Below, in pieces: positions 434-23,893 of a stretch of DNA of 64,000 nucleotides. The DNA is taken from assembly GCA_963667785.2 (NCBI GenBank), contig CAXXMU010000006.1, forward strand, positions 320,001-384,000, written 5' to 3'. Under the pieces are notes generated by a model, which had not been told where the DNA came from, did no database searches, and worked only from the letters and a program-made list of their open reading frames with translations. Made by a program: the position numbers and the translations under genes. The DNA is from Alphaproteobacteria bacterium (GTDB taxonomy: Bacteria; Pseudomonadota; Alphaproteobacteria; UBA828). The number at the start of each line of letters is the position of its first letter. The stretch's first letter is position 1.

Positions 434-2881
434 ATGGCTGAGGTTGGGGCCGATCCAGGCGGCTTGGGCGCCGGAGCGGCCGCGGGCGGCAGGCCGCTCC
501 AGCCGTCGCTCTGGAGCGCCCTCCCCCACTTCCTGCCGCTTCTGATCTTTCCGCTGATCGTCAACGCCGCGCTGCAGGGCAGCTGGTGGATCGCGGCGCC
601 CTTCGTCTTCTTCATGCTTGCGGGTCCCCTGGATGTCGCGCTCGGCGCGGACGAGAAGAACATGGACCCGGCGAAGACGCCCGAGAGGCGCCTGTTCTGG
701 CACAATCTGCCGGTCTGGGGGTGGGCGTTTCTCTGGCCCCTGACCTTCGCCTTCACGCTCTGGCAAGTCCTCGTCGTCGGCCATCTGGCCCTTTGGGAGA
801 CCGCGTTGATGGCGGTGGTGCTCGCGACCGAGGCCCAGGCGGTCTTCATCGTCGGCCACGAGCTGGTCCATCGGCGGCACGCGTGGGAGCGCCGCCTCGG
901 CGAGTTTCTGCTCGCGTCGGCCTCCTACCCGCACTACGCCACGGAGCACATCTACATTCACCACGCCCTCGTCGGCACGCCGCTTGACGTGGGGTCTGCG
1001 CCCAAGGGCGAGAGCCTCTGGCGCTATTTCCCGCGCGAGCTGGCGAGCAACATCCTCGGCGCCTGGCGCGTCACCCGCGAGCGGCTGGCCCGCCGCCGCC
1101 TGCCCATGTGGCACTACAGCAATCCCTTCTGGCGGTACGGCTTCGAAACCGCTCTCTGGTACGCGCTGATCTACTGGATGGGCGATTGGTGGGCAGTCTT
1201 GATCTACGCCGTACTCTGCCTCGGCGTCGTGCTCTCGATGAAGATCAGCAACTACATCCAGCACTACGGCCTGCGCCGCATCCGCATGCCCAACGGCCGC
1301 TTCGAGAAGGTCCGGCCCCGGCATTCGTGGAGCGCCAGCTGCAGGTTCAGCAACTGGATGTTCTACAACATGCAGCGCCATCCGGATCACCACGCGGTGG
1401 CGAGCCGGCCGTATGCACTGCTGCAGCATCGCGGCGAGGACGAATCGCCGCAGTTGCCTGGGAGCTACGGCAAGATGTTCGGCTTGGCGGTGCGACCGAA
1501 GCGCTGGTTCCGGACCATGGACCCGCTGGTCGATCAGTGGCGCGCCCACTTCTACCCCGAGATCGAGGACTGGAGCCCCTACGACAGCGCGGTTGCCGAA
1601 GCCCGGCCGGAGGCCTTCGACGCCATCGTCGAGATCTTCGGCGCAGCGCCGCGGCTCGCCGGGCTGATCGAGCGAAGCCCGGAGCTGCTCGACAGCCTCA
1701 AAAGCCGGGAGTTTACCGATCTCGATCTTCCGGGCGGCTTCGGGCCGGACCTGGAATTCGAGGCGACCGCCCGCAGTGGCCTCACGCGCCTCTACTGGAC
1801 GCACGAGTTCGGCGTCGCGGAGATGACCGAACAGATCGCCGAAGCGCCCGTTCAGGATGTGAGCGACACGGCGGACTCCGTGCGCAACTGGTCGAACGAC
1901 AAGACCTTCCAGATCGGCATCCACACGCTGCGCGGCAATCTCACCCCGATCGAGGCGGGAACGGCGCTCGCGAATGTCGCGGAGGCCGCGATCGCCGCCG
2001 TGCTCGAGGCGGTCGACGAGGAGATCGCCGAGACCCGCGGCCCGCGCGGCGAGGGAGGGATCGCGGCGGTGGCTCTGGGCGATCTGGCAAGCCGGGACGT
2101 GGCGCCCGGCATGGCGCTGGACCTCCTGTTCGTGCATGAGGGCGGCTCCGCCGGCGAGCAGGAGGCGACGTGCCGCCGCTACCGCGATGCGCTCCGCCGG
2201 CTGTCGCGCGGCAGCCTGCTGTTCGCGGACGCGCCGCGCGGTGGAAAGGGACGGGCCGCGAGAGCGCTCTCGGAGTTCGCCGATGGCGGCTGGAGCGCCG
2301 GATCGGCAGACGCGCTACTGGAGCTGACACGCACGCGCTGCGTCTTCGAATCGGGCGAGAGCGGGATCGGCCGGCGCTTCGACGAGGCGCGGCAGGCGCT
2401 GCTCGGCCGCGGCGACGCGCACGCGGCGCTCGTCGCCGAGCTGCGGGGCGGAGCCGGCGGCACGGCCGCACCGGGGCTTGCCGCGCTCGACGAGATGACC
2501 GGCGGCCTCGACGACGTCGAGCGCACTGCCCGGCTTCTCCAGCTGACCGGCCCCGGAGACGCCGTGGACGATCCGGCGCCCAGGGCGGTGGCAGTCTTCG
2601 AAGTCGCGGGGGCGCATGGCGCGATCCCCGACGACAGCGCGGAGGCCTTGATCGAGGCCGCCACGATGTGGCGCACCCTGCGCGGCATTCTGCGGCTGAT
2701 TGCGGACGACGGCGTCGTGGACGGTGCAGCGGCGACCGGGGTCAAGGCCGCCATTGCGCAGGCCGCCGGGCTGGACGATTTCGACGCGCTCGCCAACACG
2801 ATCCGCGATAGGGCATCCCGCGCCGCAGCCGCGCGCGATGCAGTGAACGGAACGCGTGGCCCCGCTGCCGGCACGAGCTGA
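434..2881 (+). CDS. AlkB-like membrane di-iron hydroxylase/desaturase fused to a degenerate GlnE (GS adenylyltransferase)-like C-terminal half
   Basis: N-terminal TM helices and His boxes HELVH, EHIYIHH, NYIQHYGL, QRHPDHH. C-half has GlnE-like segments IFGAAPRLAGLIERSPELLD, AVALGDLASRDVAPGMALDLLFV and GGLDDVERTARLLQL. Confidence 0.8.
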   Translation: MAEVGADPGGLGAGAAAGGRPLQPSLWSALPHFLPLLIFPLIVNAALQGSWWIAAPFVFFMLAGPLDVALGADEKNMDPAKTPERRLFWHNLPVWGWAFLWPLTFAFTLWQVLVVGHLALWETALMAVVLATEAQAVFIVGHELVHRRHAWERRLGEFLLASASYPHYATEHIYIHHALVGTPLDVGSAPKGESLWRYFPRELASNILGAWRVTRERLARRRLPMWHYSNPFWRYGFETALWYALIYWMGDWWAVLIYAVLCLGVVLSMKISNYIQHYGLRRIRMPNGRFEKVRPRHSWSASCRFSNWMFYNMQRHPDHHAVASRPYALLQHRGEDESPQLPGSYGKMFGLAVRPKRWFRTMDPLVDQWRAHFYPEIEDWSPYDSAVAEARPEAFDAIVEIFGAAPRLAGLIERSPELLDSLKSREFTDLDLPGGFGPDLEFEATARSGLTRLYWTHEFGVAEMTEQIAEAPVQDVSDTADSVRNWSNDKTFQIGIHTLRGNLTPIEAGTALANVAEAAIAAVLEAVDEEIAETRGPRGEGGIAAVALGDLASRDVAPGMALDLLFVHEGGSAGEQEATCRRYRDALRRLSRGSLLFADAPRGGKGRAARALSEFADGGWSAGSADALLELTRTRCVFESGESGIGRRFDEARQALLGRGDAHAALVAELRGGAGGTAAPGLAALDEMTGGLDDVERTARLLQLTGPGDAVDDPAPRAVAVFEVAGAHGAIPDDSAEALIEAATMWRTLRGILRLIADDGVVDGAAATGVKAAIAQAAGLDDFDALANTIRDRASRAAAARDAVNGTRGPAAGTS

Positions 2882-2882
2882 C

Positions 2883-5210
2883 GTGACGGATCGCCCTGCC
2901 CGATCCGGTTCGCGCCGCGGCATCCTGACGACGACATCCGCTGCCGATCACGATCCGATCGAGCGGCCGGCGCTGACGCCGCACCTTGAATTCCGGTCGC
3001 TCGGTGAAGACCGGGCGCTGCTGGTGTCGGACTCCTTCAACACGTTGCTGCACGGGCGGATCCACTGCGATCTGCTGCCCCTTCTCGACGGCCGGCGCGC
3101 GCGGGACGAGATCGTTGCCGCCCTCGCGGGCGTCCATGCGGGCGCCGAGGTGGAGCAGGCGCTGACCTCGCTTGCGGCGAGGGGATACGTCGTCTCCGGC
3201 GCGCATGTCATGGACCGGTCCCGGGCGGCGTTCTGGTCCGCGCTGGGCGCCTCGCCCTGCCGGGCGGAGGAGCGGCTCGGCGCATCGACGGTCGCGGTCG
3301 AGGGCGACGACGGCCGTCTCGCCCGCGGCCTCGGCGCCATGGGCGTGACGGTGGGCGCAGACCGCCCGACGCTCATCGTCGTCGTCTGCGCGGACTATCT
3401 CGACGAGCGGCACGACTCCCTCAATCGCCGCCACCTTGCCGCACGCACGCCCTGGATGCTGGTCCGGCCCGCCGGCCTGCAGCCGCTCTTCGGACCCGTC
3501 TTCCGGCCGGCGGAGCAGGGCCCCTGCTGGGCCTGCCTCGCCTACCGGATGCGCGGCAATCAGGAGGTTCACACCTTCCTGCGCAATCTGGGCGGCGAGG
3601 ATGCGGCCTTCGTGCCCTTCGCCGCCGTGCCTACCGCCCTGGATGCGGTGGCGGGCCTCGCCGCGGCCGAGATCGCCAAGTGGCTGGTCCTGGGAGACGC
3701 GGCGACGCTCCACGAGAGGGCGATCTCGCTGGACCTCGCCAGCCTCGAGAGCGCGCACCATCCGACCATGCGCCGGCCGCAGTGCCCCGTCTGCGGCGAC
3801 GAGGCGCGCCATCGCGCCGACCGGCCGGCGCAGCCGGTGCGCCTCGGCCCGAGCCCGAAGGGCACGCGCAACAGCGGCGGCGTGCGCACCGTCTCGCCGG
3901 AGGAGACCCTCGCCCGTTACCGGCATCTGATCAGCCCGGTGAGCGGGATCGTCACATGGGTGGCGCGCACCACGGCGGAGTCCGACCCCTGGCTGCACGT
4001 CCACTGGGCCGGCAGCAATCTGGCGCTCCGGATCAGGAGCCTGAGCTCGCTCAGGCGCAGCCTGCGGAGCAAGAGCGCGGGCAAGGGGAGCACCGCGCAG
4101 CAGTCCGAGGTGAGCGCGCTCTGCGAGGCGATCGAGCGCTATTGCGGCGCCTTCCACGGCGACGAGATCAGGCGGCCGGCGCGGTTCTCGGATTTTGCGG
4201 CGGCCGGTGGCACGGAGGCGATCCACCCCAACCAGGTTCAGCTCTTCAGCGAACGGCAACTGGACCACGCAGACGAGATCAATGCCCGCGGCCATCCCTA
4301 CAACGTGGTGCCGCCGCGCTTCGATCCCGAGAAGGAGATCGACTGGTCGCCGGTGTGGTCGCTCACGCAAGGCCGGCACCGCTATCTCCCCACATCCATG
4401 CTCTACGGCATGACTCCCGAGCAGCGGGCGCATGCGGACCTCTGGGCGGATTCGAACGGATGCGCCGCCGGCAACACGCTCGAGGAGGCGATCCTGCAGG
4501 GGTTCTACGAGCTGGTGGAGCGCGATGCCGTCGCCATCTGGTGGTACAACCGGCTGCGCCTGCCCGCGGTGGAGCTCGGGAGCTTCGGCGACGACTACCT
4601 GTCCGCCGCGCCCGACTACTACCGGGGCCGCAATCGCGACATGTGGGTGCTGGACGCGACCTCAGACCTCGGCATCCCCGCCTTCGTCGCGCTCTCGCGC
4701 CGCACGGACGTCGAGAACGAGGACATCATCTACGGCGCCGGCGCGCACGCGGACCCGCACATCGCAGCGCTCCGCGCGGTGTGCGAGATGAACCAGTGCC
4801 TGACCTGGGTGCCAAGCCCGGGCGACGGCGACGGCCGCTACGGCGTGGACGATCCCATGTGCCTGTGGTGGTGGAAGAACGCGACGCTCGCGGACCATCC
4901 CTACCTGGCGTCGGCGCCGGATGCCACGCCGCGCCGCCGGGCGGACTATCCGGTTCCCGACGGCGCCGACCTGAGAGAGGACGTGGAGCGTTGCCGCGCG
5001 CTGGTCGAGGCCCGGGGCATGGAGTTCCTCGTTCTCGACCAGACCCGGGCGGACGTCGGGATGCCGGTGGTTCGGGTGATCGTGCCGGGCCTGCGCCACT
5101 TCTGGGAACGCTTCGCGCCGGGGCGGCTCTTCGACGTGCCGGTGGAGATGGGCCGGCGCGAGTCTCCCCTGGCGGAGTCCGACCTCAATCCGGTCCCGGT
5201 CATCGCCTGA
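2883..5210 (+). CDS. srpC: Fused leader-binding/E1-like + YcaO cyclodehydratase (TOMM type, SrpC-like)
   Basis: GP...CWAC and CPVC in the E1-like domain; YcaO ATP-binding motifs EAIER, SNGCAAG, ELVERD; C-terminal PxP (NPVPVIA). GTG start chosen right after the upstream stop (ORF track starts at 2856). Confidence 0.9.
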   Translation: MTDRPARSGSRRGILTTTSAADHDPIERPALTPHLEFRSLGEDRALLVSDSFNTLLHGRIHCDLLPLLDGRRARDEIVAALAGVHAGAEVEQALTSLAARGYVVSGAHVMDRSRAAFWSALGASPCRAEERLGASTVAVEGDDGRLARGLGAMGVTVGADRPTLIVVVCADYLDERHDSLNRRHLAARTPWMLVRPAGLQPLFGPVFRPAEQGPCWACLAYRMRGNQEVHTFLRNLGGEDAAFVPFAAVPTALDAVAGLAAAEIAKWLVLGDAATLHERAISLDLASLESAHHPTMRRPQCPVCGDEARHRADRPAQPVRLGPSPKGTRNSGGVRTVSPEETLARYRHLISPVSGIVTWVARTTAESDPWLHVHWAGSNLALRIRSLSSLRRSLRSKSAGKGSTAQQSEVSALCEAIERYCGAFHGDEIRRPARFSDFAAAGGTEAIHPNQVQLFSERQLDHADEINARGHPYNVVPPRFDPEKEIDWSPVWSLTQGRHRYLPTSMLYGMTPEQRAHADLWADSNGCAAGNTLEEAILQGFYELVERDAVAIWWYNRLRLPAVELGSFGDDYLSAAPDYYRGRNRDMWVLDATSDLGIPAFVALSRRTDVENEDIIYGAGAHADPHIAALRAVCEMNQCLTWVPSPGDGDGRYGVDDPMCLWWWKNATLADHPYLASAPDATPRRRADYPVPDGADLREDVERCRALVEARGMEFLVLDQTRADVGMPVVRVIVPGLRHFWERFAPGRLFDVPVEMGRRESPLAESDLNPVPVIA

Positions 5211-5220
5211 GAGGCCGACA

Positions 5221-6522
5221 ATGAAGAGCCCCATCGACGCAGCAGAATTTCTCGTGTCGAAAGCCGGCGACGACGACGCGTTTCGTGACCGTCTGCGCGC
5301 AAACCCCACGGAAACGATCGAAACGGAGCTGGGCGTCACCCTTGACGAAGGTCATCGGATTCACGTGCACGAAGACAGCTATTCGGCGACCCATCTCGTG
5401 CTTCCGCCGCGCGAGAAATACACTCGAGAAGAACGGGAGGAAGCAAGAGGCGGTGCGGCGTCGCTCGAGTTTCTTCGCAAGACAATGCACGACCCCGCGC
5501 CTCCCCGTCGTCCGCCTGCGCCCGGACGGTCGCGCTCCCGAGAGATCGTTCCTACCGCCGAGGCACTGGCGAGAGAGGCCGAAGAAAGCATCGGTCTCGG
5601 TCTCGAATTCCTGACATCGACCATCGACGAATTCGGAGCCTGGCACTGCATCCGCTTCAACACCGCCGACCCGGACATTCCCCGGCACTTCGAAAGACCC
5701 CCCTTCGTTTCGGCTCTCTGCGTGCTTGCCTTGGAGCGTTGCCGTGACGCGCGCGCAAAGGCCGTGTGCGCTGCCACAAGGGCGTATCTCGTCGGCACGA
5801 TCGAATATCCCGGGCTATGGCGCTACTACCGCCATTTGCCGCAAGACCTCGACAGCACGGCGCTCTGTTCGCTCGTCCTCCGGGCTCATCCCTGGATTTT
5901 GCTGGGCAGAAACGTTCCGAAAATACTGGCCAATCGCGACGAGGAGGGTCGTTTCCTGACATGGCTCCTGGCGGAAGACGAGCCCACCGTCGTGTCGACC
6001 TTTCGCATCGAAGCCGACCCCGTGGTCAATGCGAACGTCATCGCCTATCTCGGCGACCACCCCGAAACCGAACCCGCCCAACGCTGGCTGGAAGCCCTGC
6101 TTGGCGAAGGCGGCGAGACGAATTCGTCCAAATGGTATCCGGATACCGTCGCGATCTACTATGCGATCAGCCGCGCCGTGGTTCGCGTGCAGCCTGCTCT
6201 CGATCGCCTGCGCCCGGTGCTCGCGGAGCGTATCCTGGGTTTGCGCGACGGGGCGGGAGAATTCGGCAACGTTCTCCAGACCGCCCAGGCCGCGTCGGCG
6301 CTCCACAACGTCGGACGCCTCGAAAACGATCACGCCAAACGCCAGGCGGAAACGTTGATCAGTTTGCAAGGTAACGACGGTAGCTGGCCGGAGCTTCTCG
6401 CCTTCGGCGACCAGTCCGTCAAGTGGGGTACGGCAGGCCGGATAGGGCACGGCTCCGAAGCCGTGACGTCCGCGTTCTGCATCGAAGCTCTGGCGCGTCT
6501 CGTCGAGATATTGCGGACTTGA
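5221..6522 (+). CDS. NHLP-leader domain (aa 1-78, ends GG) fused to a class II terpene cyclase / prenyltransferase-squalene-oxidase-repeat domain
   Basis: aa 1-78 align without gaps to the precursor leader. The downstream domain has a DLDST (DxDD-like) motif, a QW-like repeat QGNDGSWP, GAW/GLW repeats and a C-terminal GSEAVTSAFCIEAL helix. Confidence 0.75.
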   Translation: MKSPIDAAEFLVSKAGDDDAFRDRLRANPTETIETELGVTLDEGHRIHVHEDSYSATHLVLPPREKYTREEREEARGGAASLEFLRKTMHDPAPPRRPPAPGRSRSREIVPTAEALAREAEESIGLGLEFLTSTIDEFGAWHCIRFNTADPDIPRHFERPPFVSALCVLALERCRDARAKAVCAATRAYLVGTIEYPGLWRYYRHLPQDLDSTALCSLVLRAHPWILLGRNVPKILANRDEEGRFLTWLLAEDEPTVVSTFRIEADPVVNANVIAYLGDHPETEPAQRWLEALLGEGGETNSSKWYPDTVAIYYAISRAVVRVQPALDRLRPVLAERILGLRDGAGEFGNVLQTAQAASALHNVGRLENDHAKRQAETLISLQGNDGSWPELLAFGDQSVKWGTAGRIGHGSEAVTSAFCIEALARLVEILRT

Positions 6523-6624: not shown

Positions 6625-7743
6625 ATGGACGTTGACGAGGCAGTCACGCTTACCCAGGACCGTCTTGCCCGAGAGGGCGGCACCATGGCCGACCTGCTCG
6701 GGCACTTTCGAAGCGGGATCTCGCCGGTTCTCATCGGCGATCCGGAATGGGAGGACATACTCGACTGCGCCGGGAAACTTCCCATCACCATGGGCGCTCT
6801 GCCGTTCGGCTTTGAACTGCCGCTGCATGCGCGCAGGCCACAGGCCGATTTCGGTGTTTCGCTCGCGAGCGGAACCAGAACGGCGGCGTTTTTCGAGGAA
6901 CGCGCTCGGACCGACCGGTCGGATGGAACCGCGAAAGCGATCATGCAGTTGTTCAGACAAATGGATGACGAAGACTCACCGCTGCGTGACATTGTCGGCC
7001 GCAAGTTGATGCTGGAATTCGACATCGGCTCGGCGCGGGAAGGCAAGACATCGCTTCCGGGCATGTTCCTGCGGCCGGGCGAACGCCCCATCATCGGCGC
7101 CCGTGGTCAGGCGGACGATGTCGCCATGGTGGTCGACGCGCTCGCTTCCTGCGTCGGCTGGGAGGTGACCGACGCCGAGCGGGCGACCGTCGAACGCGTT
7201 TACCTGGCGCAGCCGGGAGAGACGCGCATGGATTCGTTCGGTGTGTTCCCGTCTCGCTCGCGGGCGATCCGCCTGGCGATCATGGGCTTCAGATCGGGGC
7301 AGGAAACATGTTCCTATCTTGAAGACACGGGCTGGCCGGGCCGAATCCAGACCGTCGCCTCCGTGATTGCGCGCTTCAGGGAGCGCGCGAACATCGTCAG
7401 GATCGGGGCGAACATCGACGTGCAGGAAGAGGGTCTCGGTCCAACGCTCGGCCTCACGCTCATCGTCAAGCAGAGATACACGAAGGATTCGCGCTATTGG
7501 CTCGACGGCCTGACCGATTGGGACCCGTTCCTGGCGGCACTGAGCCACGAGGACCTCGTCGTTCCGGAGAAGCTTGCGGCGCTTGCTGACTGGGTCTCGA
7601 AACCGACAACGCTTTTTGCGAAGTCCGGGCAGTATGTACTGCTGCGCGGCATTCACCACATAAAGCTTGTCATATCCGGAAATCGGCTCCGACACGCGAA
7701 AGCCTACGTGTTCATGGTGCTTTCCGGAGCGGTCTCGGCTTAG
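6625..7743 (+). CDS. Hypothetical protein, putative ABBA-fold peptide/aromatic prenyltransferase
   Basis: 372 aa with a good RBS (GAGGA). Motifs FGFELPL...ADFGV and HHIKLV...AKAYVF, alternating alpha/beta pattern, adjacent to the cyclase-like gene. Function is inferred. Confidence 0.5.
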   Translation: MDVDEAVTLTQDRLAREGGTMADLLGHFRSGISPVLIGDPEWEDILDCAGKLPITMGALPFGFELPLHARRPQADFGVSLASGTRTAAFFEERARTDRSDGTAKAIMQLFRQMDDEDSPLRDIVGRKLMLEFDIGSAREGKTSLPGMFLRPGERPIIGARGQADDVAMVVDALASCVGWEVTDAERATVERVYLAQPGETRMDSFGVFPSRSRAIRLAIMGFRSGQETCSYLEDTGWPGRIQTVASVIARFRERANIVRIGANIDVQEEGLGPTLGLTLIVKQRYTKDSRYWLDGLTDWDPFLAALSHEDLVVPEKLAALADWVSKPTTLFAKSGQYVLLRGIHHIKLVISGNRLRHAKAYVFMVLSGAVSA

Positions 7744-7752
7744 AGACGAAGG

Positions 7753-7780
7753 TGCCCCCCGGCGTTCGCGAAGGGGGGCA
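7753..7780. terminator. Stem-loop between convergent genes
   Basis: TGCCCCCC-N12-GGGGGGCA between the stops at 7743 (+) and 7850 (-). Confidence 0.5.
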
Positions 7781-7849
7781 GTTCAGGCCGCGCACGAACG
7801 CGGATTCGGAATGTTCCGCTTGTGACCGGCTACACGCCGGCCATGGGAT

Positions 7850-8101
7850 CTACCAGCAGCAGCACAGCCCGGCCGAGATGGCCTCGAGCTGCTCCTCGCT
7901 GATGTTTGGGTCCGGCGGCAACGCGAGATGCACCGTCTGCATGTCGCTCTCATGGACCTTAATCGTCATCGACTCGGGAATGGTGATGCCCAGCTCCTCG
8001 GAGATGGTGCTCTTCGGATCTGCGAGAAGCTGCTGCCTGAAATCCGCATCCAGAGCAGACTTCTCGACTATCTGCTTCAGCATTTCGTCGCCACTTCTCA
8101 T
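7850..8101 (-). CDS. srpE: NHLP (proteusin) RiPP precursor: 78-aa leader + core LCCCW (SrpE-like)
   Basis: MRSGDEML...DADFRQQLLADPK...EELGITIP...VHE...HLALPP...EEQLEAISAG|LCCCW. AG double-Gly-type site; RBS AGGGAG before the ATG at 8101. Confidence 0.93.
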   Translation of the reverse strand: MRSGDEMLKQIVEKSALDADFRQQLLADPKSTISEELGITIPESMTIKVHESDMQTVHLALPPDPNISEEQLEAISAGLCCCW

Positions 8102-8131
8102 GGCAATGCTCCCTTGGTTCACGCACGATAC

Positions 8132-8160
8132 CGAGTAACACGATCATTTTTCCCGGTCAA
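8132..8160 (-). promoter_or_regulatory. Candidate dedicated promoter for the precursor gene
   Basis: Minus strand TTGACC-N17-TACTCG in an AT-rich spacer. Confidence 0.35.
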
Positions 8161-8255: not shown

Positions 8256-10598
8256 TCAGGACTCGGTCGCGGCCCGCTTCGCAGATCGCCGGTCGAGCGC
8301 CGTCAGCAGCGCCGGCAAGAGCGTCAGGTCGGCAACGAGCGCAAAGGCGATGATCAGCGCGGTAAGGACCCCGACCTGCGCGGTCGGAACGAACGGAGAG
8401 AACACGAAGATGAGAAAACCGGCGACGAGCACGACCGTCGTCGTGAACAGGGCACGGCCGCTCGTGTCGAAGGCGTAGCGCACCGCCTCGTCCGGGTCAT
8501 GGCCGAATTCATGCCGCGCACGGCGGTACTTGCTGAGGAAATGCACCGTATCGTCGACGACGATGCCTATGGTCATGGCCACCACGACAGACAGCGAAAG
8601 ACCGACCTGTCCGACCGCCAATCCCCAGACGCCGAAACCCAGCACGGCGGGAAGCAGGTTGGGAACGATGCTTATCAGGCCCAGCCGCAGCGAGCGTAGA
8701 GCGAAGAGGAGAATGGCGGAGATGGCCAGGAGCACGACCAGCGTCCCGATCAGCACCGCCTGGATGTTGCGCTGCCCGATGTAGGCGAACAGCGCCGAGG
8801 GCCCGGTGCTGTTCACGCTGGCGACATGCGGCGCGTTTTCCTTCAGCCAGGTCTCGGCACGTTCGTTCAGTTCGAGCACATCCTTCGAATAGAGGGTCTC
8901 GGTCGATACCGACATGCGCGTGGCCGACCTGGACCGGTCGATCTGGTTGTTCACGTCGAGACCGTCCGGCAGCGAAAGCTCGTAGAGGAGCAGATATTGC
9001 GCTGCCAGCTCCCGGCTTTCCGGAATCCCGTAAGCGCCCGGGTCGTCGCCGTGCATGCTCTTGTTGAGTTGCCGGAAGGTATCGGTGATGACCGACACGT
9101 GGCGTACCGGTGCCTGCTCCCGGTACCAGTCGGCGAAGTTCGCGACGTCGGCGAGGAAAAGCGGATCCGTGGCGCCGCCTTCGCTGGATGCATGCAGCGA
9201 GTATTCGAGCAGGGTATTCCCGCTCAAGCGCTCATCCATGAAATCCGTGTCCTGCCTGAACTCGACGCTCTCGTCGAAGAAATGGACCAGAACGTCATTG
9301 AGATCGTTGCGCGGAATGCCCAGAGCCATCGCCACCACGACCACCAGCCATCCCGCGAACAGCGCCTTCCTGTGGTGCAGCACGAAATCCGCCACGCGGT
9401 TCATCGAGAGCCCGCGGAAGAGCCGGCGCTCCTTCGGCGCACGCATGGGGAGAAGCGAGAGGATGGCCGGCAGGAAGGTGACGGAAAGTATGAACGACGC
9501 GCCAATGCCGATGGCGACGAAGTTGCCGAGATGGCGGTAGGGCGGAACCTCGGAAAAGTTCATGCTCAGGAAGCCGAGCGCCGTCGTGAGACTCGCCAGA
9601 AACACCGGATGCAAGTTGAGCCGGACGGCTTCGACGATGGCATCGCGCTTGGAATCCCCGGCTCGGAGACGCTGCTGCAACGCCACCAGCAGGTGCACGC
9701 AGTTCGCCACGACAATCATCAACACGATGGTGGGGGCCGGGGAGACGGGCGGCGAAAAGGGCAGGCCGAACCACACGCCGAGGCCCACCGACACGAAAAT
9801 CGAGAAGACGATCACCATCCCGGTCGTCGCCACCCCCGCCCAGCGCCGTGTCAGGAGGCCGAGGATCACGGCCATGAGCAGAAGGCTCGCGGGAAGAAAG
9901 ATCATCTGGCTGCTGAGCGAGGCTTCCACGAAGGTCTGGTTGACCATGACCGTCCCGACGACGCGGAGGTCCATGCCCGGGAATCGCTCTTCCGCCTCCG
10001 CCGCGATCGATCTGGCGAATTCGGCAACCTCGGCGACGGCCTCCAGCAGGCCGTCCTCCGGCAGCTCGACGGTGACGTTCACGACGCTGACATCGCCGTT
10101 CAGGGCCAGGATGCTGCCCGCGATGCGCGGGTCGGACAAAGCGATGGCACGGACGTGCTCCCGCGCTTCGGCTCGGGTCAGCTCCTGGGGATCGACGAGG
10201 TCCCGCACGTACAGGTCGTCGCCGTCGGCGGTCGTGTATTGAAAATTGGCGAGTGAGTCGACGCGCCGGGAATAGGGTGTCTGCCAGGCGGCCTTCGTCA
10301 GCCAGACGGCCGCAGAGAGTGCGTCTTGCGAGGTGGCGTCGCCATCGTCCGGCACGATCAGGAAGGCGATGTTCTCGTGCTTGCCGTACGTATTCTCCAG
10401 CTCCTCGAGCGCCAGAAGCTGCGGATTGTCTTCGTCGAAGAAGATTCGATAGTTGGCAGAGAACTCGAGCTGGGTAACGCCCAGCGTCGCGACCGCAACC
10501 ACGAACACCGTGGCCGCGATGACCCACCAGCGAGCCGCAAGCACCCGCTCGGCAAATCGCTTAGCGAATTGCTCTCTTGCTATCTCGGGCTTATCCAC
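8256..10598 (-). CDS. MMPL/RND-family transporter
   Basis: Two repeats of (TM + periplasmic loop + 5 TM); GIVVDDTVHFL and ASLTTALGF motifs. Confidence 0.9.
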   Translation of the reverse strand: MDKPEIAREQFAKRFAERVLAARWWVIAATVFVVAVATLGVTQLEFSANYRIFFDEDNPQLLALEELENTYGKHENIAFLIVPDDGDATSQDALSAAVWLTKAAWQTPYSRRVDSLANFQYTTADGDDLYVRDLVDPQELTRAEAREHVRAIALSDPRIAGSILALNGDVSVVNVTVELPEDGLLEAVAEVAEFARSIAAEAEERFPGMDLRVVGTVMVNQTFVEASLSSQMIFLPASLLLMAVILGLLTRRWAGVATTGMVIVFSIFVSVGLGVWFGLPFSPPVSPAPTIVLMIVVANCVHLLVALQQRLRAGDSKRDAIVEAVRLNLHPVFLASLTTALGFLSMNFSEVPPYRHLGNFVAIGIGASFILSVTFLPAILSLLPMRAPKERRLFRGLSMNRVADFVLHHRKALFAGWLVVVVAMALGIPRNDLNDVLVHFFDESVEFRQDTDFMDERLSGNTLLEYSLHASSEGGATDPLFLADVANFADWYREQAPVRHVSVITDTFRQLNKSMHGDDPGAYGIPESRELAAQYLLLYELSLPDGLDVNNQIDRSRSATRMSVSTETLYSKDVLELNERAETWLKENAPHVASVNSTGPSALFAYIGQRNIQAVLIGTLVVLLAISAILLFALRSLRLGLISIVPNLLPAVLGFGVWGLAVGQVGLSLSVVVAMTIGIVVDDTVHFLSKYRRARHEFGHDPDEAVRYAFDTSGRALFTTTVVLVAGFLIFVFSPFVPTAQVGVLTALIIAFALVADLTLLPALLTALDRRSAKRAATES

Positions 10599-10620
10599 TG
10601 GACTGGCGCCACCTTTCCGC

Positions 10621-13563
10621 TCACGCGATCTGCCTCCTGACCAGTTCCCTGAATACGCCGTCGGCCTCCATGAGTTCGGCGAAGGAGCCGCTCTGCACGA
10701 CTCTTCCGGCCTGCAATACGTAGATTCGGTCGGCCTGTTCCAGCGTGGACAGGCGGTGGGCGATGACGAGCCGGGTGGACGTCAGGGCGGCGAGGTTGCG
10801 CATGACCTTGGCCTGGTTCTCGTTGTCCAGCCAGTTGGTGGCCTCGTCGAACAGCATGATCCGCGGGCTGCCAATGACCGAGCGGGCGATCGTCAGGCGC
10901 TGGCTCTCGCCGCCGGACAGCACCGCCCCGCTGGTGCCGACCATGGTCATCATGCCCATGGGCATGCTCTTGATTTCGGCCTCGAGCTCGGCGATCCGGA
11001 CCGCCGTCCAGACCTCCTCGCTGGCCACGTCGTCGTGGTGGCCGACCAGGTTATCCCAAAGATCCTGTGGATGGAGTCCGACCGATTGCGGTACCGCGCC
11101 GATTCTCCGGCGCACCTGCCTCAGGTTCAGGTGCCTCAGATCGCGGCCGTCGTAATACACCGCGCCGGCGGTAGGCCGGTCTATGCCAAGCGCGAGCCGG
11201 AAGAGCGTGCTCTTGCCGGCCCCGGACTCGCCGGCAATCGCGACGAATTCCCCGGCACGGGCGCGAATGGTGACGTCGTCGAGAACCAGCGGGCCATCAG
11301 GATCGTAACGGAAGGAGATGCGGTCGAACAAAATGTCGCCGCCCAAGTACTCGACCGGCTCTCCTTCGAGCTCGGTTTCAGGAGCCGCGGCGAGCAGCGG
11401 ACGCATCTGATCGAACGCCGGCAGCATGGCGACAATGGTGCCGAAGGACTCTCCGAGGCGGGCGATGGCAGACTGGAACGTGATGAAGACGATGTAGACG
11501 ACGAGAAAATCGCCGACCGGAACGGCCCGATCGCCCACCGCGATCACCGCGAAGAGTAGCACCCCGCCGGCGAGAAACGGGAGCGCGGCACCGAACGCCC
11601 GTGAATGCCCCTCCAGCGCATTCAGCTCCAGCTCCGCCCGCTTCTGCTCGCGATAGTCTCGCGCCCAGATCGCGAACGCCGATCCTTCCGCGTTTTCCAC
11701 ACGCAGCTTGGCGATGCCGCCCACGATCTGGAACAGCCGGCCGGCGACGCGACGCGCCGCACCGATCATCCGCCCATAGGGCGAAATCTGGCGCAACCCG
11801 AGGAGGACGGTGACCAGCAGCGACGCCAGGCTGAAGGCGAGCGCAATGGCTCCGAGAGTCGCATCGTAGAAGAAGATGACGCCGAAGACCGGAAGCAGGA
11901 AAACGATCGACAGCAGGCTGTCGGCGACGATTCCCTGCACACCGTCGCGAAGGGTCTGGAACGTCATTCCCGACATGGCCAGATCGCCGGCCGGATGGCG
12001 GCGCAGGACGCTCGGCGGCAAGCGCATGAGGCGGTCCCACACGGCAGCTTCGACCCGCGACGCCGAGCGCCCCTCGAGCCGCATCATGGCCGTGCTCTGA
12101 GCCATGTGCAGCAGTGCACCGAGCAGGCCGAACACCGCCACCACCACGGCAACAACGTAGAGCGCTCCGACGTTTCCGCCCGTCGCGACGTGACTTGCGA
12201 CGAAGCCAAGCGCGATCGCCGGCAGCAGCTTGATCAGGCCGCCCGGAAGACCGGCAATCACCAGCCGCGCCAGATCCGGGGCCGATCCATGCAGGGCGAT
12301 ACCCAGCAGGTCTGCCGGTTTCACGTTCCCCGACGGCAATGGCCGATAGAACATCCAGGCTTCGTCGCCCAGCGCATCGGCGCGCTCCGCCGTCATCCGA
12401 ACGCTGCGCTTGCTGACCGGGTCGACTTCCCGGTAGCGCCCGAGCATCCCCGGCAATAGCGCTACGGGCCGGCCGTCTTCGGCGCGGAATGCCAGCAACG
12501 CGTTGCTGTCGCCGCGCCACCAGTCGCCCTCGTCCTTGAGCCGCACGCGCCGGGCACGCACGCCCGACGCATCGAGAACGTCAACGAGGCCGATCGGAGA
12601 TTCGGACGGTCCCGAGCGCGCCGGAATCCTGAAATCGATGCCCTCACGGCGGCCGATGATGTGCAGGGCATCCGTGAGGGACGTGTCCTCGACGCTTGCA
12701 TCCCGTTCGATCGGACGATCGTAGATGTTGTAGAGCCGCTGCCGCGCAGCTCGTTCTGCCGTCCGGCGGCTGGTGGTTCGCGCGCGTTCGAGATTCGCCT
12801 CGTCGACCATCGCCAGCCGGCGGTTGAGGCGCTCCAGGGCGAGAGCAACCGCGTGAAAGGAGGCGAGCGCGGGCAGCAGCTTGCCCGTTCGCGCCAGAGC
12901 CTCGGTCGACTTGCCGGAAAGAGTCGCCTCGTCGAACAAGGTGAGCCAGCTCGTCCTCGTCAGCGCTATCACGGCGTCGTGCGGACCGCCGGTCCCGGCA
13001 AGCTCCGACTGGTCGACGACATCCATGAACAGGCTCGTGCCGGGTGGCGGTTGGGATACCCACACCACGCCGCGCCGCACCGACAGCGTGCAGGGGGCGA
13101 GCGCCCGTGTCATGCCGGGCTCGGCCAGCGCGGTCGGACGCGGGAGGCGACCCGCGAAACGCGACAACGTCTCGGTAATGGCGTTCAGCCATGTGTTGGT
13201 CTGCTCCGCCAGCTCCGACGGCCGAACCTCCGACAGCAGGGATGTCGGCAGGCGTCTCAGGAGAGTACCGGGCTGTCCCTTGGCGATCAGGCTGAGCGTC
13301 GTGCCTTCGTCGTCGTCTCCTTCATCCGGTGCGACGCCCGGCACCAGCCATCCCGCGTCGCGGCGCAGCAGGTGCTGCGGCGCCGCCTGCTCGACGCCGT
13401 CCTTGAATTCGACCAGGAACAGATTGACGGCACCCTGATCGATGAACCAGACACTGTCCGGGTCGTCGAGCGTCACGGGCAGATTGCCCGCGCAGGGCAC
13501 CGACGTGCCGGCGCGCTCGGCGAGCGCGGCCAACGAGGTATATGCCGTCCCGGCGCCCTGCAT
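10621..13563 (-). CDS. NHLP bacteriocin-system ABC transporter permease/ATPase (no peptidase)
   Basis: Walker A GESGAGKST, LSGGE, FDEATNWLD. ATG at 13563 overlaps the upstream TGA (TGATG). Confidence 0.88.
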   Translation of the reverse strand: MQGAGTAYTSLAALAERAGTSVPCAGNLPVTLDDPDSVWFIDQGAVNLFLVEFKDGVEQAAPQHLLRRDAGWLVPGVAPDEGDDDEGTTLSLIAKGQPGTLLRRLPTSLLSEVRPSELAEQTNTWLNAITETLSRFAGRLPRPTALAEPGMTRALAPCTLSVRRGVVWVSQPPPGTSLFMDVVDQSELAGTGGPHDAVIALTRTSWLTLFDEATLSGKSTEALARTGKLLPALASFHAVALALERLNRRLAMVDEANLERARTTSRRTAERAARQRLYNIYDRPIERDASVEDTSLTDALHIIGRREGIDFRIPARSGPSESPIGLVDVLDASGVRARRVRLKDEGDWWRGDSNALLAFRAEDGRPVALLPGMLGRYREVDPVSKRSVRMTAERADALGDEAWMFYRPLPSGNVKPADLLGIALHGSAPDLARLVIAGLPGGLIKLLPAIALGFVASHVATGGNVGALYVVAVVVAVFGLLGALLHMAQSTAMMRLEGRSASRVEAAVWDRLMRLPPSVLRRHPAGDLAMSGMTFQTLRDGVQGIVADSLLSIVFLLPVFGVIFFYDATLGAIALAFSLASLLVTVLLGLRQISPYGRMIGAARRVAGRLFQIVGGIAKLRVENAEGSAFAIWARDYREQKRAELELNALEGHSRAFGAALPFLAGGVLLFAVIAVGDRAVPVGDFLVVYIVFITFQSAIARLGESFGTIVAMLPAFDQMRPLLAAAPETELEGEPVEYLGGDILFDRISFRYDPDGPLVLDDVTIRARAGEFVAIAGESGAGKSTLFRLALGIDRPTAGAVYYDGRDLRHLNLRQVRRRIGAVPQSVGLHPQDLWDNLVGHHDDVASEEVWTAVRIAELEAEIKSMPMGMMTMVGTSGAVLSGGESQRLTIARSVIGSPRIMLFDEATNWLDNENQAKVMRNLAALTSTRLVIAHRLSTLEQADRIYVLQAGRVVQSGSFAELMEADGVFRELVRRQIA

Positions 13564-15773
13564 CAGCCTGACCTCGCCAGCTTGAAATAGGTGCCGTCCC
13601 GGTCCGCGATCAGCTCCTCGTGCGTGCCGCGCTGCACTTCGACGCCCTTGTCGAGCACGATGATCTCGTCGCAATCCCGCACGGTGCTGAGCCGGTGTGC
13701 GACGATCAGGCAGGTGGTGCCGCGACGCCGCAAGGCGTCGTCCACGCGTTCCTCCGTCGCGGCGTCGAGGGCGCTGGTCGCTTCGTCCAGAATCAGCAGG
13801 GTCGGATTGCCGACCAGCGCACGGGCGATCTCCAGCCGTTGCCGCTGACCGCCGCTGAAATTCGCCCCGCCTTCCTCGACGAGGGTCGAATACCCCTGCG
13901 GCCTGACGAGAATTTCGTCATGGATTCCCGCATCCCGCGTCGCGGCGAAGATGGCTTCATCGGGAACAGCCGGGTTCCACAGGGTGATGTTGTCGCGAAG
14001 GGTGGCGGAAAAGAGCACGACGTCCTGATCCACCATGGAAATGGACTGCCGCAGCACTTCCTCCGGAATCTCGTCCCGCACGTGGCCGTCGAACAGAATC
14101 TCACCCGACCAGGGCTGATAGACGCCCGAAACCAGTCGCGCCAGGGTCGACTTGCCGGACCCGCTGGGGCCGACCACCGCAACGCGATGCCCCGGCTTGA
14201 TCACGAGGTTGAAGTCCTTGATCAAGGGCGGCCGGCTCTTGTTGAACCCGAAGGTGATGTTTCGCAGCTCGAGCTGGCCGGCAAGCTGGAGCCGGCCGTT
14301 GAACGTGGGGATCGATTCCGATTCCGGACTGCGGCGCTCGAACACGGGGTCTTCGGCGGCCTTGGAAATGTCGTCCAGGCGCTGCAAGTCGGTTTCCAGC
14401 GCCTGGCGCTTCTCGGCGAACTCCAGGAAGCGCCCGACGGGTGCCAGAAACATCTCCGCCAGTATGTAGAACCCGACCAGCGTCCCCAGCGTCATGTCTC
14501 CGGCCATGACAAGACTTCCTCCGAAGCCCAGGATCGCCGCGCTGCGAAGTGCGGCAATCAGGCCCGGAAGCGCGGTATTGACGGAACCCAGTTCCGAATA
14601 GAGCTGGCGCGCCCGAAGCTCGCGCGCCTGCTGACCGCTCCAGCGCGAAAAGAAGCGGTCATCCGCGCCCGTCATGCGCAGGTTTTCCGCGTGATTCAGC
14701 ATCTGCATGCCGAAGCCGATCAGCAGGCCTTGTTCGCGCCTCATTGCCTGACTTCGAACGGCCCGGAGCCCGTTGAGAAAGTGAGCCAGAATTCCGTGCA
14801 GAAGGGCAAGAAACAACACGATCAGCGTCAGCAGTGCATCGTAGGCGAACATCGCGATGAGCAATATCACGCTCATCGCCATGTCGATGATGAGCACGAG
14901 GAACTGATCCGTCAGATTCTTTGCGACTCTGTCGATGGACGAGACTCGATCGGTGAGGTCGCCGACCAGTCTGTGTTCGAAGAAATCCACCGGCAATCGC
15001 AGCAGCCGGGTCAAGCCCCGACTGTAGCCAATCACTGAAATTCGGACGGCCAGTCGCTTCAGGAACCGGTGCTTGAGCAGCGAGAGAACGTAGACCAGTA
15101 CACCGCCGCCCAGCAACGCCGCCACCACTCCGCCCCACGCCCCGTGGTTTTCCAGAACGTCGTCCACGAACACGCCGAGAGAAGCGGGAACGATGAGCGT
15201 GAGCAGCGTCAACAGGAGTCCGCAGGCAAGAAGTCCCGCAACCACACGCCACGACTCCACGGGCAGGCTGCTCAACTGCCTGACCAGGCCGATGCGCTCG
15301 CCACCGGGCGTGAAGTCGGCACCGCGGCTGAACTGCAACGCTATTCCACTGTAGCTCCGCGTGAACTCTTCTGCGGAAACCCGGCGCCGACCGGTCGCCG
15401 GATCATTGAGATGGAAATAGCGGTCGTCAAACCCTTCGAGAATGACGAAATGGCTGAATTGCCAGAACAGAATCAGGGGTAACTGCAGCCTTTTCAGCTG
15501 CTCGGCCCGCACGCTGAGTCCCCTGCATTCGAGACCGTAATGTCTTGAGGCGCGCAAGATGCTCGCGGCACTGCTGCCGTCCCGGCTCACCTCGCATTTC
15601 TCGCGCAATTCGGTAGGTGGCACCCAGCGTCCGAAGTAGGCCAGGACGCTGCCGAGGCAGGTGGCGCCACATTCCGATGCATGCATCTGCAACAGAATTG
15701 GCGTCGTTACCCTTCGTTTCGAGACGTCCGCGCCGGCCTTGTCGCTTGCCCCCTTGGAGGCGCGCAGGGGCAT
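13563..15773 (-). CDS. NHLP bacteriocin export ABC transporter with C39 peptidase (PCAT)
   Basis: LQMHASECGATCL (catalytic Cys), HFVILEG, GPSGSGKST, FSGGQ, DEATSALD. Confidence 0.92.
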   Translation of the reverse strand: MPLRASKGASDKAGADVSKRRVTTPILLQMHASECGATCLGSVLAYFGRWVPPTELREKCEVSRDGSSAASILRASRHYGLECRGLSVRAEQLKRLQLPLILFWQFSHFVILEGFDDRYFHLNDPATGRRRVSAEEFTRSYSGIALQFSRGADFTPGGERIGLVRQLSSLPVESWRVVAGLLACGLLLTLLTLIVPASLGVFVDDVLENHGAWGGVVAALLGGGVLVYVLSLLKHRFLKRLAVRISVIGYSRGLTRLLRLPVDFFEHRLVGDLTDRVSSIDRVAKNLTDQFLVLIIDMAMSVILLIAMFAYDALLTLIVLFLALLHGILAHFLNGLRAVRSQAMRREQGLLIGFGMQMLNHAENLRMTGADDRFFSRWSGQQARELRARQLYSELGSVNTALPGLIAALRSAAILGFGGSLVMAGDMTLGTLVGFYILAEMFLAPVGRFLEFAEKRQALETDLQRLDDISKAAEDPVFERRSPESESIPTFNGRLQLAGQLELRNITFGFNKSRPPLIKDFNLVIKPGHRVAVVGPSGSGKSTLARLVSGVYQPWSGEILFDGHVRDEIPEEVLRQSISMVDQDVVLFSATLRDNITLWNPAVPDEAIFAATRDAGIHDEILVRPQGYSTLVEEGGANFSGGQRQRLEIARALVGNPTLLILDEATSALDAATEERVDDALRRRGTTCLIVAHRLSTVRDCDEIIVLDKGVEVQRGTHEELIADRDGTYFKLARSG

Positions 15774-21094: not shown

Positions 21095-21172
21095 GGTCGC
21101 GCTTTCGTTTGCGATCCCGGAAGATGGCGTCCCTGCGACGGACGGATCGGCCCTCGATGCGGCCGGCGCGGC

Positions 21173-21862: not shown

Positions 21863-21905
21863 GAGGGTGCAAGCGGCGGACTCTAGGAGCCGCCCGGGCC
21901 TCGCG

Positions 21906-22553: not shown

Positions 22554-23893
<1,340 letters not shown>

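Follow-up and report, generated by a model that had tools for sequence, protein, structure and literature searches.

Near the left end of the window, by which we mean the whole stretch of 64,000 nucleotides analysed, a single ORF of 815 amino acids on the plus strand (positions 434–2881) encodes a fusion protein (P0001) recognized from Pfam, NCBIfam and PDB sequence matches. Its first part (aa 1–389; 434–1600, plus strand) corresponds in sequence and fold to the AlkB-type di-iron membrane oxygenase 8f6t, and the remainder (aa 390–815; 1601–2878, plus strand) resembles the adenylyltransferase (AT) half of GlnE in Pfam, NCBIfam, fold and profile comparisons and in alignment with the GlnE2 of the same genome, and is probably a pseudo-enzyme domain. 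The following genes on the plus strand encode an SrpC-like E1-like/RRE plus YcaO cyclodehydratase (2883–5210, or from a GTG at 2856; TOMM_cyclo_SagD, 275.6 bits), a 433-aa protein with an NHLP-leader-like N-terminal domain and a squalene-cyclase/prenyltransferase-type toroid-like domain (5221–6522), and a 372-aa protein predicted to fold like ABBA aromatic prenyltransferases (6625–7743; model pLDDT 90.2). The minus strand then carries the genes for an SrpE-like NHLP precursor ending in ...EEQLEAISAGLCCCW (7850–8122; 83 or 90 aa, depending on whether the ATG at 8101 or the GTG at 8122 is the start), an MMPL/RND-type transporter (8256–10598), a 1017-aa ABC transporter with a long N-terminal extension lacking a Pfam match (10621–13674) and a Peptidase C39 plus ABC exporter (PCAT; 13563–15773). 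Genes for a LolA-like protein (16615–17493), a DUF1302-like protein with a weak match (17493–18713) and an SrpI-like flavin-dependent Trp halogenase (18853–20127; Trp_halogenase, E 2.9e-44) follow on the plus strand, the last forming the right-hand end of the cluster, whose edge is marked by the housekeeping genes beyond it.

The locus is an already published one, the srp (sponge-derived RiPP proteusin) cluster, which had been overlooked in the first-pass annotation; these proteusins were reportedly published by Nguyen et al. in J Am Chem Soc in 2021 (doi 10.1021/jacs.1c03474). Compared with the descriptions given in the accessible portions of papers citing that work, no difference was found at the cluster level: the NHLP precursor with an LCCCW core, the YcaO cyclodehydratase and the Trp halogenase are shared, as is the occurrence in numerous bacterial taxa of sponge microbiomes. 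According to the same portions, sponges harbour srp clusters in different bacterial phyla, and few biosynthetic genes there are transcribed more strongly than those for the srp precursors; the product is a thiazoline-containing peptide with a 6-bromo-Trp, and its ecological role is unknown. The only two srp enzymes described in them are SrpC, which forms the thiazolines, and SrpI, which brominates, in both cases without the fusion gene. In our survey, the LCCCW core was found at 34 of 46 precursor-bearing loci. The neighbours of the fusion gene also look as if they handle isoprenoids, which the first-pass annotation had missed too. The model of the 372-aa protein gave 62 PDB matches at E ≤ 0.001, with ABBA prenyltransferases among the matches listed, and the 433-aa protein resembles terpene-cyclase toroids; both assignments, prenyltransferase and cyclase, are leads drawn from resemblances in fold or features. 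To our knowledge, no prenylated srp product has been reported. Pfam scans of the cluster ORFs detected no nitroreductase or SagB-type match. A nitroreductase ORF lying 8.6 kb upstream was considered as the azoline dehydrogenase of the cluster and rejected as a member because it has a counterpart at none of the 80 loci.

The fusion is genuine and not an assembly artefact. The same AlkB plus GlnE-like architecture recurs in 465 loci or relatives in one genome collection, which rules out chance, and both junctions are spanned by contigs from independent sponge-metagenome runs; the suspicion that the fusion might be confined to one assembly and lack spanning reads is thereby removed, and the single frame described at first stands. 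FA_desaturase (Pfam) matches aa 121–349 (E 9.6e-26), GlnE (PF03710) matches aa 464–572 with 30.4 bits, above its gathering cut-off of 24, and GlnD_UR_UTase matches aa 689–759 with a score under its cut-off. The AF2 model of the whole protein has a pLDDT of 80.7. Two kinds of match that might have represented separate halves were discarded. The 'standalone' GlnE-like matches of about 455 aa (P0133 and P0136) start within the AlkB C-terminal segment and are therefore read as fragments and not as a free domain, and the many AlkB-only matches (250–440 aa, 53–90% identity) have out-of-frame-looking tails or lie at contig ends and were not accepted as split genes.

The fusion gene is a core member of the srp cluster, as tightly conserved there as the YcaO gene. 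It had been stated that the YcaO gene starts 1 nt after the fusion gene; this holds for the in-frame GTG at 2883, the fusion stop codon TGA occupying 2879–2881, whereas the alternative, earlier in-frame GTG at 2856 would give a 26-nt overlap. Among the 73 loci informative for this adjacency, namely those with at least 3 kb downstream, 55 have a same-strand YcaO gene within −30 to +344 nt after the fusion gene, another six have one 1.2–1.7 kb downstream, and 12 have none in the flank. Where at least 8 kb was available on both sides, at least one other srp gene accompanied the fusion gene at 54 of 57 loci, and no srp gene was found within 8–10 kb at the other three. Two of these three loci have YcaO fragments nearby in the same genomes, which suggests decayed clusters; in one genome (L034) no srp-type YcaO match at all was obtained. 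Fusion-family loci and the YcaO adjacency are spread across many labelled phyla. In two genomes, YcaO relatives that are 57–61% identical lie in non-srp proteusin clusters and have no adjoining fusion gene. A 35%-identical fusion (L089) resides in a non-RiPP neighbourhood, next to CysN/APS-kinase, sulfotransferase, penicillin-amidase and MatE genes, which implies that this type of enzyme is not tied to RiPPs. For the srp-associated family, the tight and conserved linkage makes a role in RiPP tailoring, already proposed from the adjacency in this one stretch, the best reading.

Judged by sequence and model, the AlkB half would be an intact membrane di-iron oxygenase. Its aa 40–368 match AlkB 8f6t in sequence (E 9.4e-49), and the AF2 model matches 8f6t and 8sbb with E-values of 8e-13 and 2e-10, respectively (TM 0.72, target-normalized). 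Like the AlkB alkane 1-monooxygenase of Fontimonas thermophila (FtAlkB; PDB 8F6T/8SBB), it has, besides the fold, all four His motifs (HELVH, EHIYIHH, NYIQHYG and QRHPDHH), as had been noticed initially, and each of the nine iron-binding His is kept in 80/80 family sequences. The change from NYxEHYG to NYIQHYG (aa 273–279; 1250–1270, plus strand), also recorded at the outset, proved to be a family trait: in contrast to FtAlkB, position 276 is Gln in all 80 fusion sequences. All 48 of the closest unfused AlkBs, with 30–50% identity, have Glu, a relative that looks unfused (39% identity) has Gln, and three more distant fusions retain the Glu; P0163 and P0172 are not AlkB fusions and were excluded from this count. 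In the consulted parts of the structural reports on FtAlkB, this Glu coordinates or adjoins Fe2 at 3.2 Å from the substrate methyl (PMC10113152, PMC10110569), and a water molecule takes the equivalent place in the desaturase SCD1 (PMC10110569). Since Q276 replaces an iron-coordinating, substrate-near residue, hydroxylation may be altered or lost.

The surroundings of the AlkB active site and its C-terminus follow the known enzymes as well. The basic patch by which FtAlkB docks rubredoxin, given in the consulted text as Arg143, 148, 169, 215, 284 and 287 (PMC10113152), corresponds in the 8f6t alignment to R148, R153, Y174, R220, R289 and K292 of the fusion and is largely kept: among the 80 sequences, the five basic positions are R in 77, R in 79, R in 74, R in 75, and K in 48 plus R in 26, and position 174 is Tyr in 79. 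AlkB-type alkane monooxygenases hydroxylate terminal positions of alkanes and receive their electrons from rubredoxin. No electron-transfer partner gene is encoded within the cluster; the genome has one rubredoxin gene, located outside it. The native AlkB C-terminal tail, WRAHFYPEIEDWSPYDS, which is also C-terminal in unfused AlkBs, is present within the AlkB half. The extra domain is appended to a cytoplasmic C-terminus, as rubredoxin is reported to be in the fusion FtAlkBG (PMC10113152). Unlike in AlkB–rubredoxin fusions, what is appended is a relic of a GlnE-type nucleotidyltransferase and not a redox domain, and unlike the genes of AlkB alkane hydroxylases, the fusion gene lies in a RiPP cluster and not in an alkane-degradation operon.

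That the second half derives from the C-terminal half of GlnE, as first suggested, was borne out by several comparisons. Residues 473–797 align to positions 632–974 of the 986 positions of the GlnE equivalog PRK14108 (NCBIfam), scoring 87.7 bits where the equivalog cut-off is 724. The half is 38% identical to aa 600–1040 of the genome's own GlnE2 (E 2e-69), and the family profile matches the AT domain of Escherichia coli GlnE (3k7d; E 6.4e-18) better than its N-terminal domain (1v4a; E 3.7e-5); the predicted fold matches both structures. The homology therefore runs over the whole AT half as in 3k7d and GlnE2, and unlike in GlnE, the bifunctional glutamine synthetase adenylyltransferase/adenylyl-removing enzyme of about 950–1050 aa with two tandem nucleotidyltransferase halves, only one half is present, the C-terminal one, with a sub-cut-off score and a degenerate, variable motif, joined to a membrane enzyme. 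Two intact glnE genes reside elsewhere in the genome (1020 and 1030 bits, both above the PRK14108 cut-off).

In the profile alignment, the degenerate motif GDLASRDVAPGMALD (aa 549–563; 2078–2122, plus strand) pairs with GKLGGWELGYSSDLD of 3k7d, and instead of the GlnE signature GKLG[GS]xE ... SDxD the fusion reads GDLASRD...MALD. At the Lys position of GKLG, none of the 80 family sequences has K or R, and 73 have Asp. Of the two Asp positions of SDxD, the first is variable (A 32, E 19, others), the second is D in 50, E in 19, N in 6, H in 3 and R in 2, and both metal positions are acidic in only 18 sequences, so that the catalytic degeneracy initially noted in one protein extends to the family. 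The loop G549-D550-x-A552-S553-x-E555 is strongly conserved, and the distant fusions P0141 (GDLG...SDVEL) and P0155 (GRLG...SEVEL) have near-canonical-looking motifs. Both halves are under purifying selection, the median dN/dS over 34 independent pairs being 0.25 for aa 390–800 and 0.09 for AlkB (one locus, L042, was left out of the codon analysis owing to a stop or X in its translation), which disposes of neutral evolution of the GlnE part. The least constrained regions of that part are the nucleotidyltransferase core (0.28) and the C-terminal helices (0.36), and the best conserved is the helical stretch adjoining the AlkB tail (0.11–0.17). From its residues, then, the GlnE-like half appears to be dead as an adenylyltransferase, yet retained. 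The same type of domain also occurs on RND transporters (P0174, P0192) and on fusions outside RiPP clusters (L089), which makes a role dedicated to a RiPP leader less likely. A first scan of metagenome contigs for the context of the two RND fusions gave no matches, and a second gave just ordinary RND pumps, with matches that end near residue 1090–1170 and without a GlnE-like tail. A complex prediction for the full-length fusion and the SrpE precursor returned a score of 0.00 ('no answer'), which is neutral with respect to binding.

On balance, we lean towards the fusion being a tailoring oxidase of the srp pathway that acts on a hydrophobic part of the product and carries a non-catalytic GlnE-like module for docking or regulation. 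The data show the architecture and its conservation, the degenerate motif, selection on both halves and the synteny; what the enzyme acts on, which reaction it catalyses, where its electrons come from and what the GlnE-like domain does are inferred from them. On the cytoplasmic side of the membrane, the AlkB half would oxidize this hydrophobic part while the product matures, most likely by hydroxylating a terminal methyl. As its target, an isoprenoid group attached by the 372-aa neighbour is the likeliest candidate, a prenyl group coming into question because this neighbour is predicted to fold as an ABBA prenyltransferase; alternatively, the side chain of the conserved Leu1 of the core could be oxidized. 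A greasy substrate is plausible given the ABBA-fold, toroid-like, MMPL, LolA-like and DUF1302-like neighbours. A rubredoxin-type protein encoded by a separate gene would supply the electrons by docking at the largely retained basic patch. The GlnE-like half, having lost nucleotide transfer, may persist in the cytoplasm as a module for docking or regulation on the native AlkB C-terminus.

It could also be that the fusion acts on a hydrophobic compound other than the peptide, such as a membrane lipid or some other metabolite, for instance in self-protection or export, and merely travels with the cluster. Fusions without srp genes at three full-flank loci, the relative beside sulfotransferase and MatE genes, the presence of the same C-terminal module on RND transporters and the lipid-type exporters of the cluster would all agree with this; we nevertheless regard it as unlikely, since a same-strand YcaO gene, here separated by 1 nt or overlapping, adjoins at 55 of 73 loci over many labelled phyla, and two of the three srp-less loci look like decayed clusters. 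About as improbable to us is that the AlkB half is a desaturase, turning the SrpC thiazolines into thiazoles or introducing another desaturation in place of the FMN dehydrogenase that is usual in azole-forming clusters. The want of a nitroreductase or SagB-type match in the cluster would fit, as would the invariant Glu-to-Gln change, which removes a carboxylate beside Fe2 where SCD1, in the text consulted, has water. However, the passages available describe the SrpI substrate as physiologically carrying thiazolines, the AlkB tunnel, according to the consulted text, opens into the membrane and would poorly fit a leader-bound soluble peptide (PMC10113152), and the Glu is retained in the three more distant fusions. 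In the papers searched that mention SrpI, no desaturase is mentioned in the srp context.

Two further alternatives concern the GlnE-like half, and we give little credence to either. It might be an active enzyme with a non-canonical site that adenylylates the hydroxyl made by the AlkB half or AMPylates a protein, thereby coupling two steps. The strong conservation of the 549–555 loop, the 18 sequences with two acidic metal-position residues and the near-canonical-looking motifs of the distant fusions speak for activity, but the metal positions vary freely in the srp clade, no basic residue ever occupies the GKLG Lys position, and constraint is weakest in the nucleotidyltransferase core and the C-terminal helices. 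The AT half of GlnE responds to glutamine and PII. The domain might accordingly, as the first-pass annotation offered, sense nitrogen status and gate the oxygenase through retained glutamine or PII binding; descent from the AT half together with purifying selection would favour such a sensor, which seems highly improbable, whereas no gene related to PII or nitrogen turned up among those of the cluster and the low dN/dS beside the AlkB tail fits an intramolecular or partner contact equally well.

If the preferred tailoring-oxidase reading is extended to the whole cluster, the cryptic srp product might be a lipidated RiPP and more than a brominated pentapeptide with three thiazolines: the ABBA protein would prenylate the peptide, the NHLP-tagged toroid protein would cyclize or process it, the AlkB/pseudo-GlnE protein would oxidize a terminal methyl in the membrane, and the MMPL, LolA-like and DUF1302-like proteins would export the product by a lipid-type route, with pseudo-GlnE as a new docking module grafted onto AlkB and RND pumps. 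This scenario is speculative, and we think it more doubtful than probable. A review (PMC9505594) and a preprint (10.64898/2026.08.03.742642) contain nothing on srp genes, and no report of a GlnE-type pseudo-enzyme domain on AlkB was found in the literature searched. The fusion gene is thus a conserved, still uncharacterized part of srp clusters that are common to many sponge-associated bacteria. It encodes what appears to be an alkane-type C–H oxidase in which an active-site ligand is changed throughout the family, joined to a pseudo-enzyme domain, and the family offers a natural case for the effect of a Glu-to-Gln change on AlkB chemistry. Taken with its prenyltransferase-fold and cyclase-like neighbours, the fusion provides a concrete proposal for how the gaps in a widespread symbiont pathway may be filled.

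The fused gene (434-2881, plus strand) is a single ORF of 815 aa in which Pfam recognizes an FA_desaturase domain (PF00487) at aa 121-349 (E 9.6e-26) and a GlnE domain (PF03710) at aa 464-572 (30.4 bits, cut-off 24). In NCBIfam, aa 473-797 correspond to positions 632-974 of the 986 of the GlnE equivalog PRK14108, with a score of 87.7 bits, far under the cut-off of 724. A single base separates the TGA stop (2879-2881) from a GTG that lies in frame with YcaO; if the YcaO gene instead began at an earlier in-frame GTG (2856), the two genes would overlap by 26 nt. What the first-pass annotation had read from the sequence, namely the 815-aa ORF, the AlkB His boxes, the NYIQHYG variant, the degenerate GlnE signature and the 1-nt gap, was borne out throughout. 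The fusion is also real, and the assembly artefact that the annotation had entertained is excluded, by recurring relatives as well as by metagenome contigs bridging the junctions. When one genome per species was scanned, 465 relatives were recovered and the 80 best, with 56-77% identity, were retained; the best 120 matches of a protein search are 732-903 aa long and 58-98% identical, with a precomputed GlnE-family Pfam domain next to PF00487 in 108. Near-identical DNA occurs in public runs labelled sponge metagenome: in run X3 one contig over 300-1659 (13 differences) spans the AlkB/GlnE junction and a second over 1630-5294 (87 differences) spans the junction to the YcaO gene, run X5 has contigs over 1351-1633 and 1797-3683, and run X1, whose match is free of differences, may be the source sample. 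Record titles place the relatives in Alphaproteobacteria, Gammaproteobacteria, Nitrospirales, Opitutales, Acidobacteria orders, Nitrospinota, Deltaproteobacteria and Binatia, though these are MAG labels in which binning errors are possible, and several indicate sponges (Spongia bin, Poriferihabitaceae). Among 301 evenly sampled genomes from the same class, three encode a full-length fusion: the present one and two others, whose fusions have 66% and 37% identity.

Upstream of 434 there is nothing in common with the other loci compared, and the fused gene is thus the first gene of its cluster in this genome. Directly downstream lies an E1-like/YcaO fusion, and then come a 433-aa protein whose N-terminus resembles an NHLP leader (5221-6522, plus strand), a 372-aa protein matching nothing in Pfam or NCBIfam (6625-7743, plus strand) and an NHLP precursor ending EEQLEAISAGLCCCW (7850-8122, minus strand). 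Further neighbours are an MMPL transporter, a long ABC transporter of 1017 aa (10621-13674, minus strand), a C39-peptidase ABC exporter, LolA-like and DUF1302-like genes, and a Trp halogenase with housekeeping genes past its far side. This gene set is exactly that described for the srp cluster (Nguyen et al. 2021) in the accessible text of three later papers (PMC9426513; 10.1101/2023.06.09.544420; PMC10858898), and the cluster is therefore already published. According to the same text, the precursor SrpE has the core LCCCW, three thiazolines are made by the YcaO enzyme SrpC, Trp is brominated by SrpI, the precursor is very highly transcribed, and srp is spread across many taxa in sponge microbiomes. 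Among the accessible main-text papers that were searched, no relevant one paired 'AlkB' with 'GlnE' or 'SrpI' with 'desaturase'. The srp cluster sits beside core housekeeping genes, its end adjoining (20237-30154) a PEP-mutase-family gene and an adenylate kinase/SecY/ribosomal protein operon. The 1017-aa ABC transporter, in which about 470 N-terminal residues are without any Pfam match, is the best-conserved cluster protein, with 80-85% identity among loci from differently labelled phyla. Plus-strand ORFs at 7752-8138, 8826-10256, 10453-11559 and 11605-12459 were rejected as genes, being shadows of the minus-strand precursor, MMPL and ABC transporter genes in DNA of 61-74% GC; their apparent conservation in other loci arises because the genes on the opposite strand are conserved.

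In 55 of the 73 loci whose downstream flank reaches 3 kb or more, YcaO follows the fused gene immediately and on the same strand; it lies 1.2-1.7 kb further on in six and is absent from the flank in 12. Where both flanks extend for 8 kb or more (57 loci), 54 loci have at least one further srp gene. When the whole genomes of five exceptions were searched, YcaO was found elsewhere in two, as fragments alone in two and not at all in one. The genomes of relatives L036 and L071 have kept the fused gene near srp-type YcaO open frames of only 265 and 141 aa, and their clusters look decayed, with the oxygenase gene retained. Small precursors were seen in 46 loci, ending in LCCCW (34), LCCCG[VLIW] (8) or other Cys-rich sequences (4). 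Variant cores (LCCCG[VLIW], LCCC, LSCCL, LSCCG, LTCCGC), with the AGL cleavage-site context retained, occur in loci L006, L021, L022, L024, L045, L052, L064, L081, L030, L035, L073 and L080. In two genomes of the 301-genome sample, YcaO relatives at 57-61% identity are accompanied by precursors that differ from srp and by no srp accessory genes.

The reading we lean towards, and hold to be somewhat probable, is that the fused protein serves the srp pathway as a membrane-bound tailoring oxidase. Its AlkB half would oxidise a hydrophobic group of the srp product in the membrane, a prenyl chain being the preferred candidate and the core's Leu1 the next, electrons would come from a rubredoxin-type donor, and the dead GlnE domain would act as a docking or regulatory module. 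The closest solved structure by sequence is Fontimonas thermophila AlkB (FtAlkB; 8f6t, E 9.4e-49, aa 40-368), and an AlphaFold2 model built from 34 relatives (pLDDT 80.7, pTM 0.77) matches 8f6t and 8sbb with a TM of 0.72, normalised to the target. In an alignment of the fused protein with 79 relatives from genome loci, all nine His that bind iron are kept in 80/80 sequences, and the Glu of NYxEHYG is replaced by Gln in all 80. In the FtAlkB paper this Glu is an Fe2 ligand and is 3.2 A away from the methyl of the substrate (PMC10113152), and a second AlkB structure paper gives it as a conserved carboxylate near the iron, with water there in the desaturase SCD1 (PMC10110569). That the fused protein is instead a thiazoline or other desaturase seems improbable to us. 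Of 117 shorter AlkB-like matches, 48 have Glu and are 30-50% identical to the fused protein, 36 lack the motif region and 33 have Gln, 32 of these at 53-90% identity, which seem to be fragments of fused-family members, and one at 39%. Since 12 distant full-length fusions have Gln in nine cases and Glu in three, the change arose within the fused family. Rubredoxin docks on six Arg of FtAlkB, according to the FtAlkB paper (PMC10113152); by our own reading of the 8f6t alignment these correspond to R148, R153, Y174, R220, R289 and K292, and the five basic positions are retained in most of the 80 sequences. The single rubredoxin gene of the genome is on a different contig. A conserved WRxxFYPEIxDWxxYD stretch (aa 369-384) also terminates unfused AlkBs of the nearest clade; judged from sequence, it is the native AlkB C-terminus and no fusion-made linker, the GlnE-like part being added directly after it.

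The GlnE-like half matches the E. coli GlnE adenylyltransferase domain 3k7d (family profile, E 6.4e-18) and the GlnE N-terminal domain 1v4a (E 3.7e-5), in both cases also by predicted fold. In the profile alignment the 3k7d motif GKLGGWELGYSSDLD faces GDLASRDVAPGMALD. The catalytic degeneracy claimed in the first-pass annotation holds across the family: the Lys of GKLG is never K or R (0/80) and is Asp in 73/80, the motif Gly is Ala in 79/80, the first Asp position is unconstrained (A 32, E 19, P 7, G 6, others), the second has D 50, E 19, N 6, H 3 and R 2, and both are acidic in just 18/80. Such a site is, from its residues, not like that of a working nucleotidyltransferase, and a residual nucleotidyl-transfer step appears very unlikely, even if two distant fusions retain near-canonical motifs, so that the ancestor may have been active. 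Nor is the domain decaying, despite its dead motif: Nei-Gojobori estimates over 34 non-overlapping pairs from the 80 sequences (L042 excluded) gave median dN/dS of 0.09 for AlkB, 0.11 for aa 366-470, 0.17 for aa 471-545, 0.28 for the nucleotidyltransferase core and 0.36 for the C-terminal helices. The neutral evolution that the same annotation had named as a possible outcome is not seen, with 0.25 over aa 390-800. An intact glnE elsewhere, which it had left to be confirmed, is present, since both full-length GlnE proteins of the genome score above the PRK14108 cut-off. Aa 390-815 are 38% identical to aa 600-1040 of one of them (E 2e-69) and 29% identical to the other across 177 aa. In the paralog nearest the fused domain (L086, G000:C2:797623-800745) the adenylyltransferase half reads GRLGSRQMTVTAPLDL, in which another residue takes the place of the first metal-pair Asp, and the other has the canonical motif in both halves. 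Nitrogen sensing, another function proposed for the domain, we regard as hardly probable.

With aa 375-815 as query against 1.84 billion representatives, 768 matches were obtained, including Pfam-checked AlkB fusions as low as 26-33% identity. Two others (P0174 and P0192) are RND (AcrB-type) transporters of 1521-1525 aa with the same module at the C-terminus and a motif that is also degenerate; their genomic context was sought and not found. In another alphaproteobacterial genome, an AlkB/GlnE-like fusion of 35% identity (L089:8596-11082, plus strand) is flanked by CysN/APS-kinase, sulfotransferase, penicillin-amidase and MatE genes, and no srp gene was seen in its flanks. This neighbourhood suggests a hydroxylation-then-sulfation pathway that may act on a lipid-like substrate. 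For the srp-linked protein, we doubt a lipid function that is independent of the peptide. The AlkB fusions outside srp and the RND fusions imply that the module is a general cytoplasmic add-on of membrane proteins, and its wider occurrence makes a function linked to the leader of srp less likely.

Two neighbouring proteins bear on the substrate that the proposed tailoring oxidase might meet. The 372-aa protein models confidently (pLDDT 90.2) as a predicted ABBA aromatic prenyltransferase fold: 62 matches in the PDB reach E <= 0.001, and among those listed all are ABBA aromatic prenyltransferases, including the peptide prenyltransferases PatF and LimF (TM about 0.5). The 433-aa protein, conserved in 39/80 loci, consists of an NHLP-leader-like domain (aa 9-70; 39 bits, under the cut-off), a Pro-rich linker and a toroid-like domain, its C-terminal 330 aa being likened to squalene-hopene-cyclase-type toroids or prenyltransferase repeats by language-model features only, which is a lead. 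It contains QDLDSTA, which we take to resemble the cyclase motif DxDDTA, and it may be in effect an enzyme with a leader-like tag in cis. With its MMPL, LolA-like and DUF1302-like genes as well, the cluster seems to have the means of producing and exporting a lipid-like product, and an alkane-type methyl hydroxylase would fit such a product.
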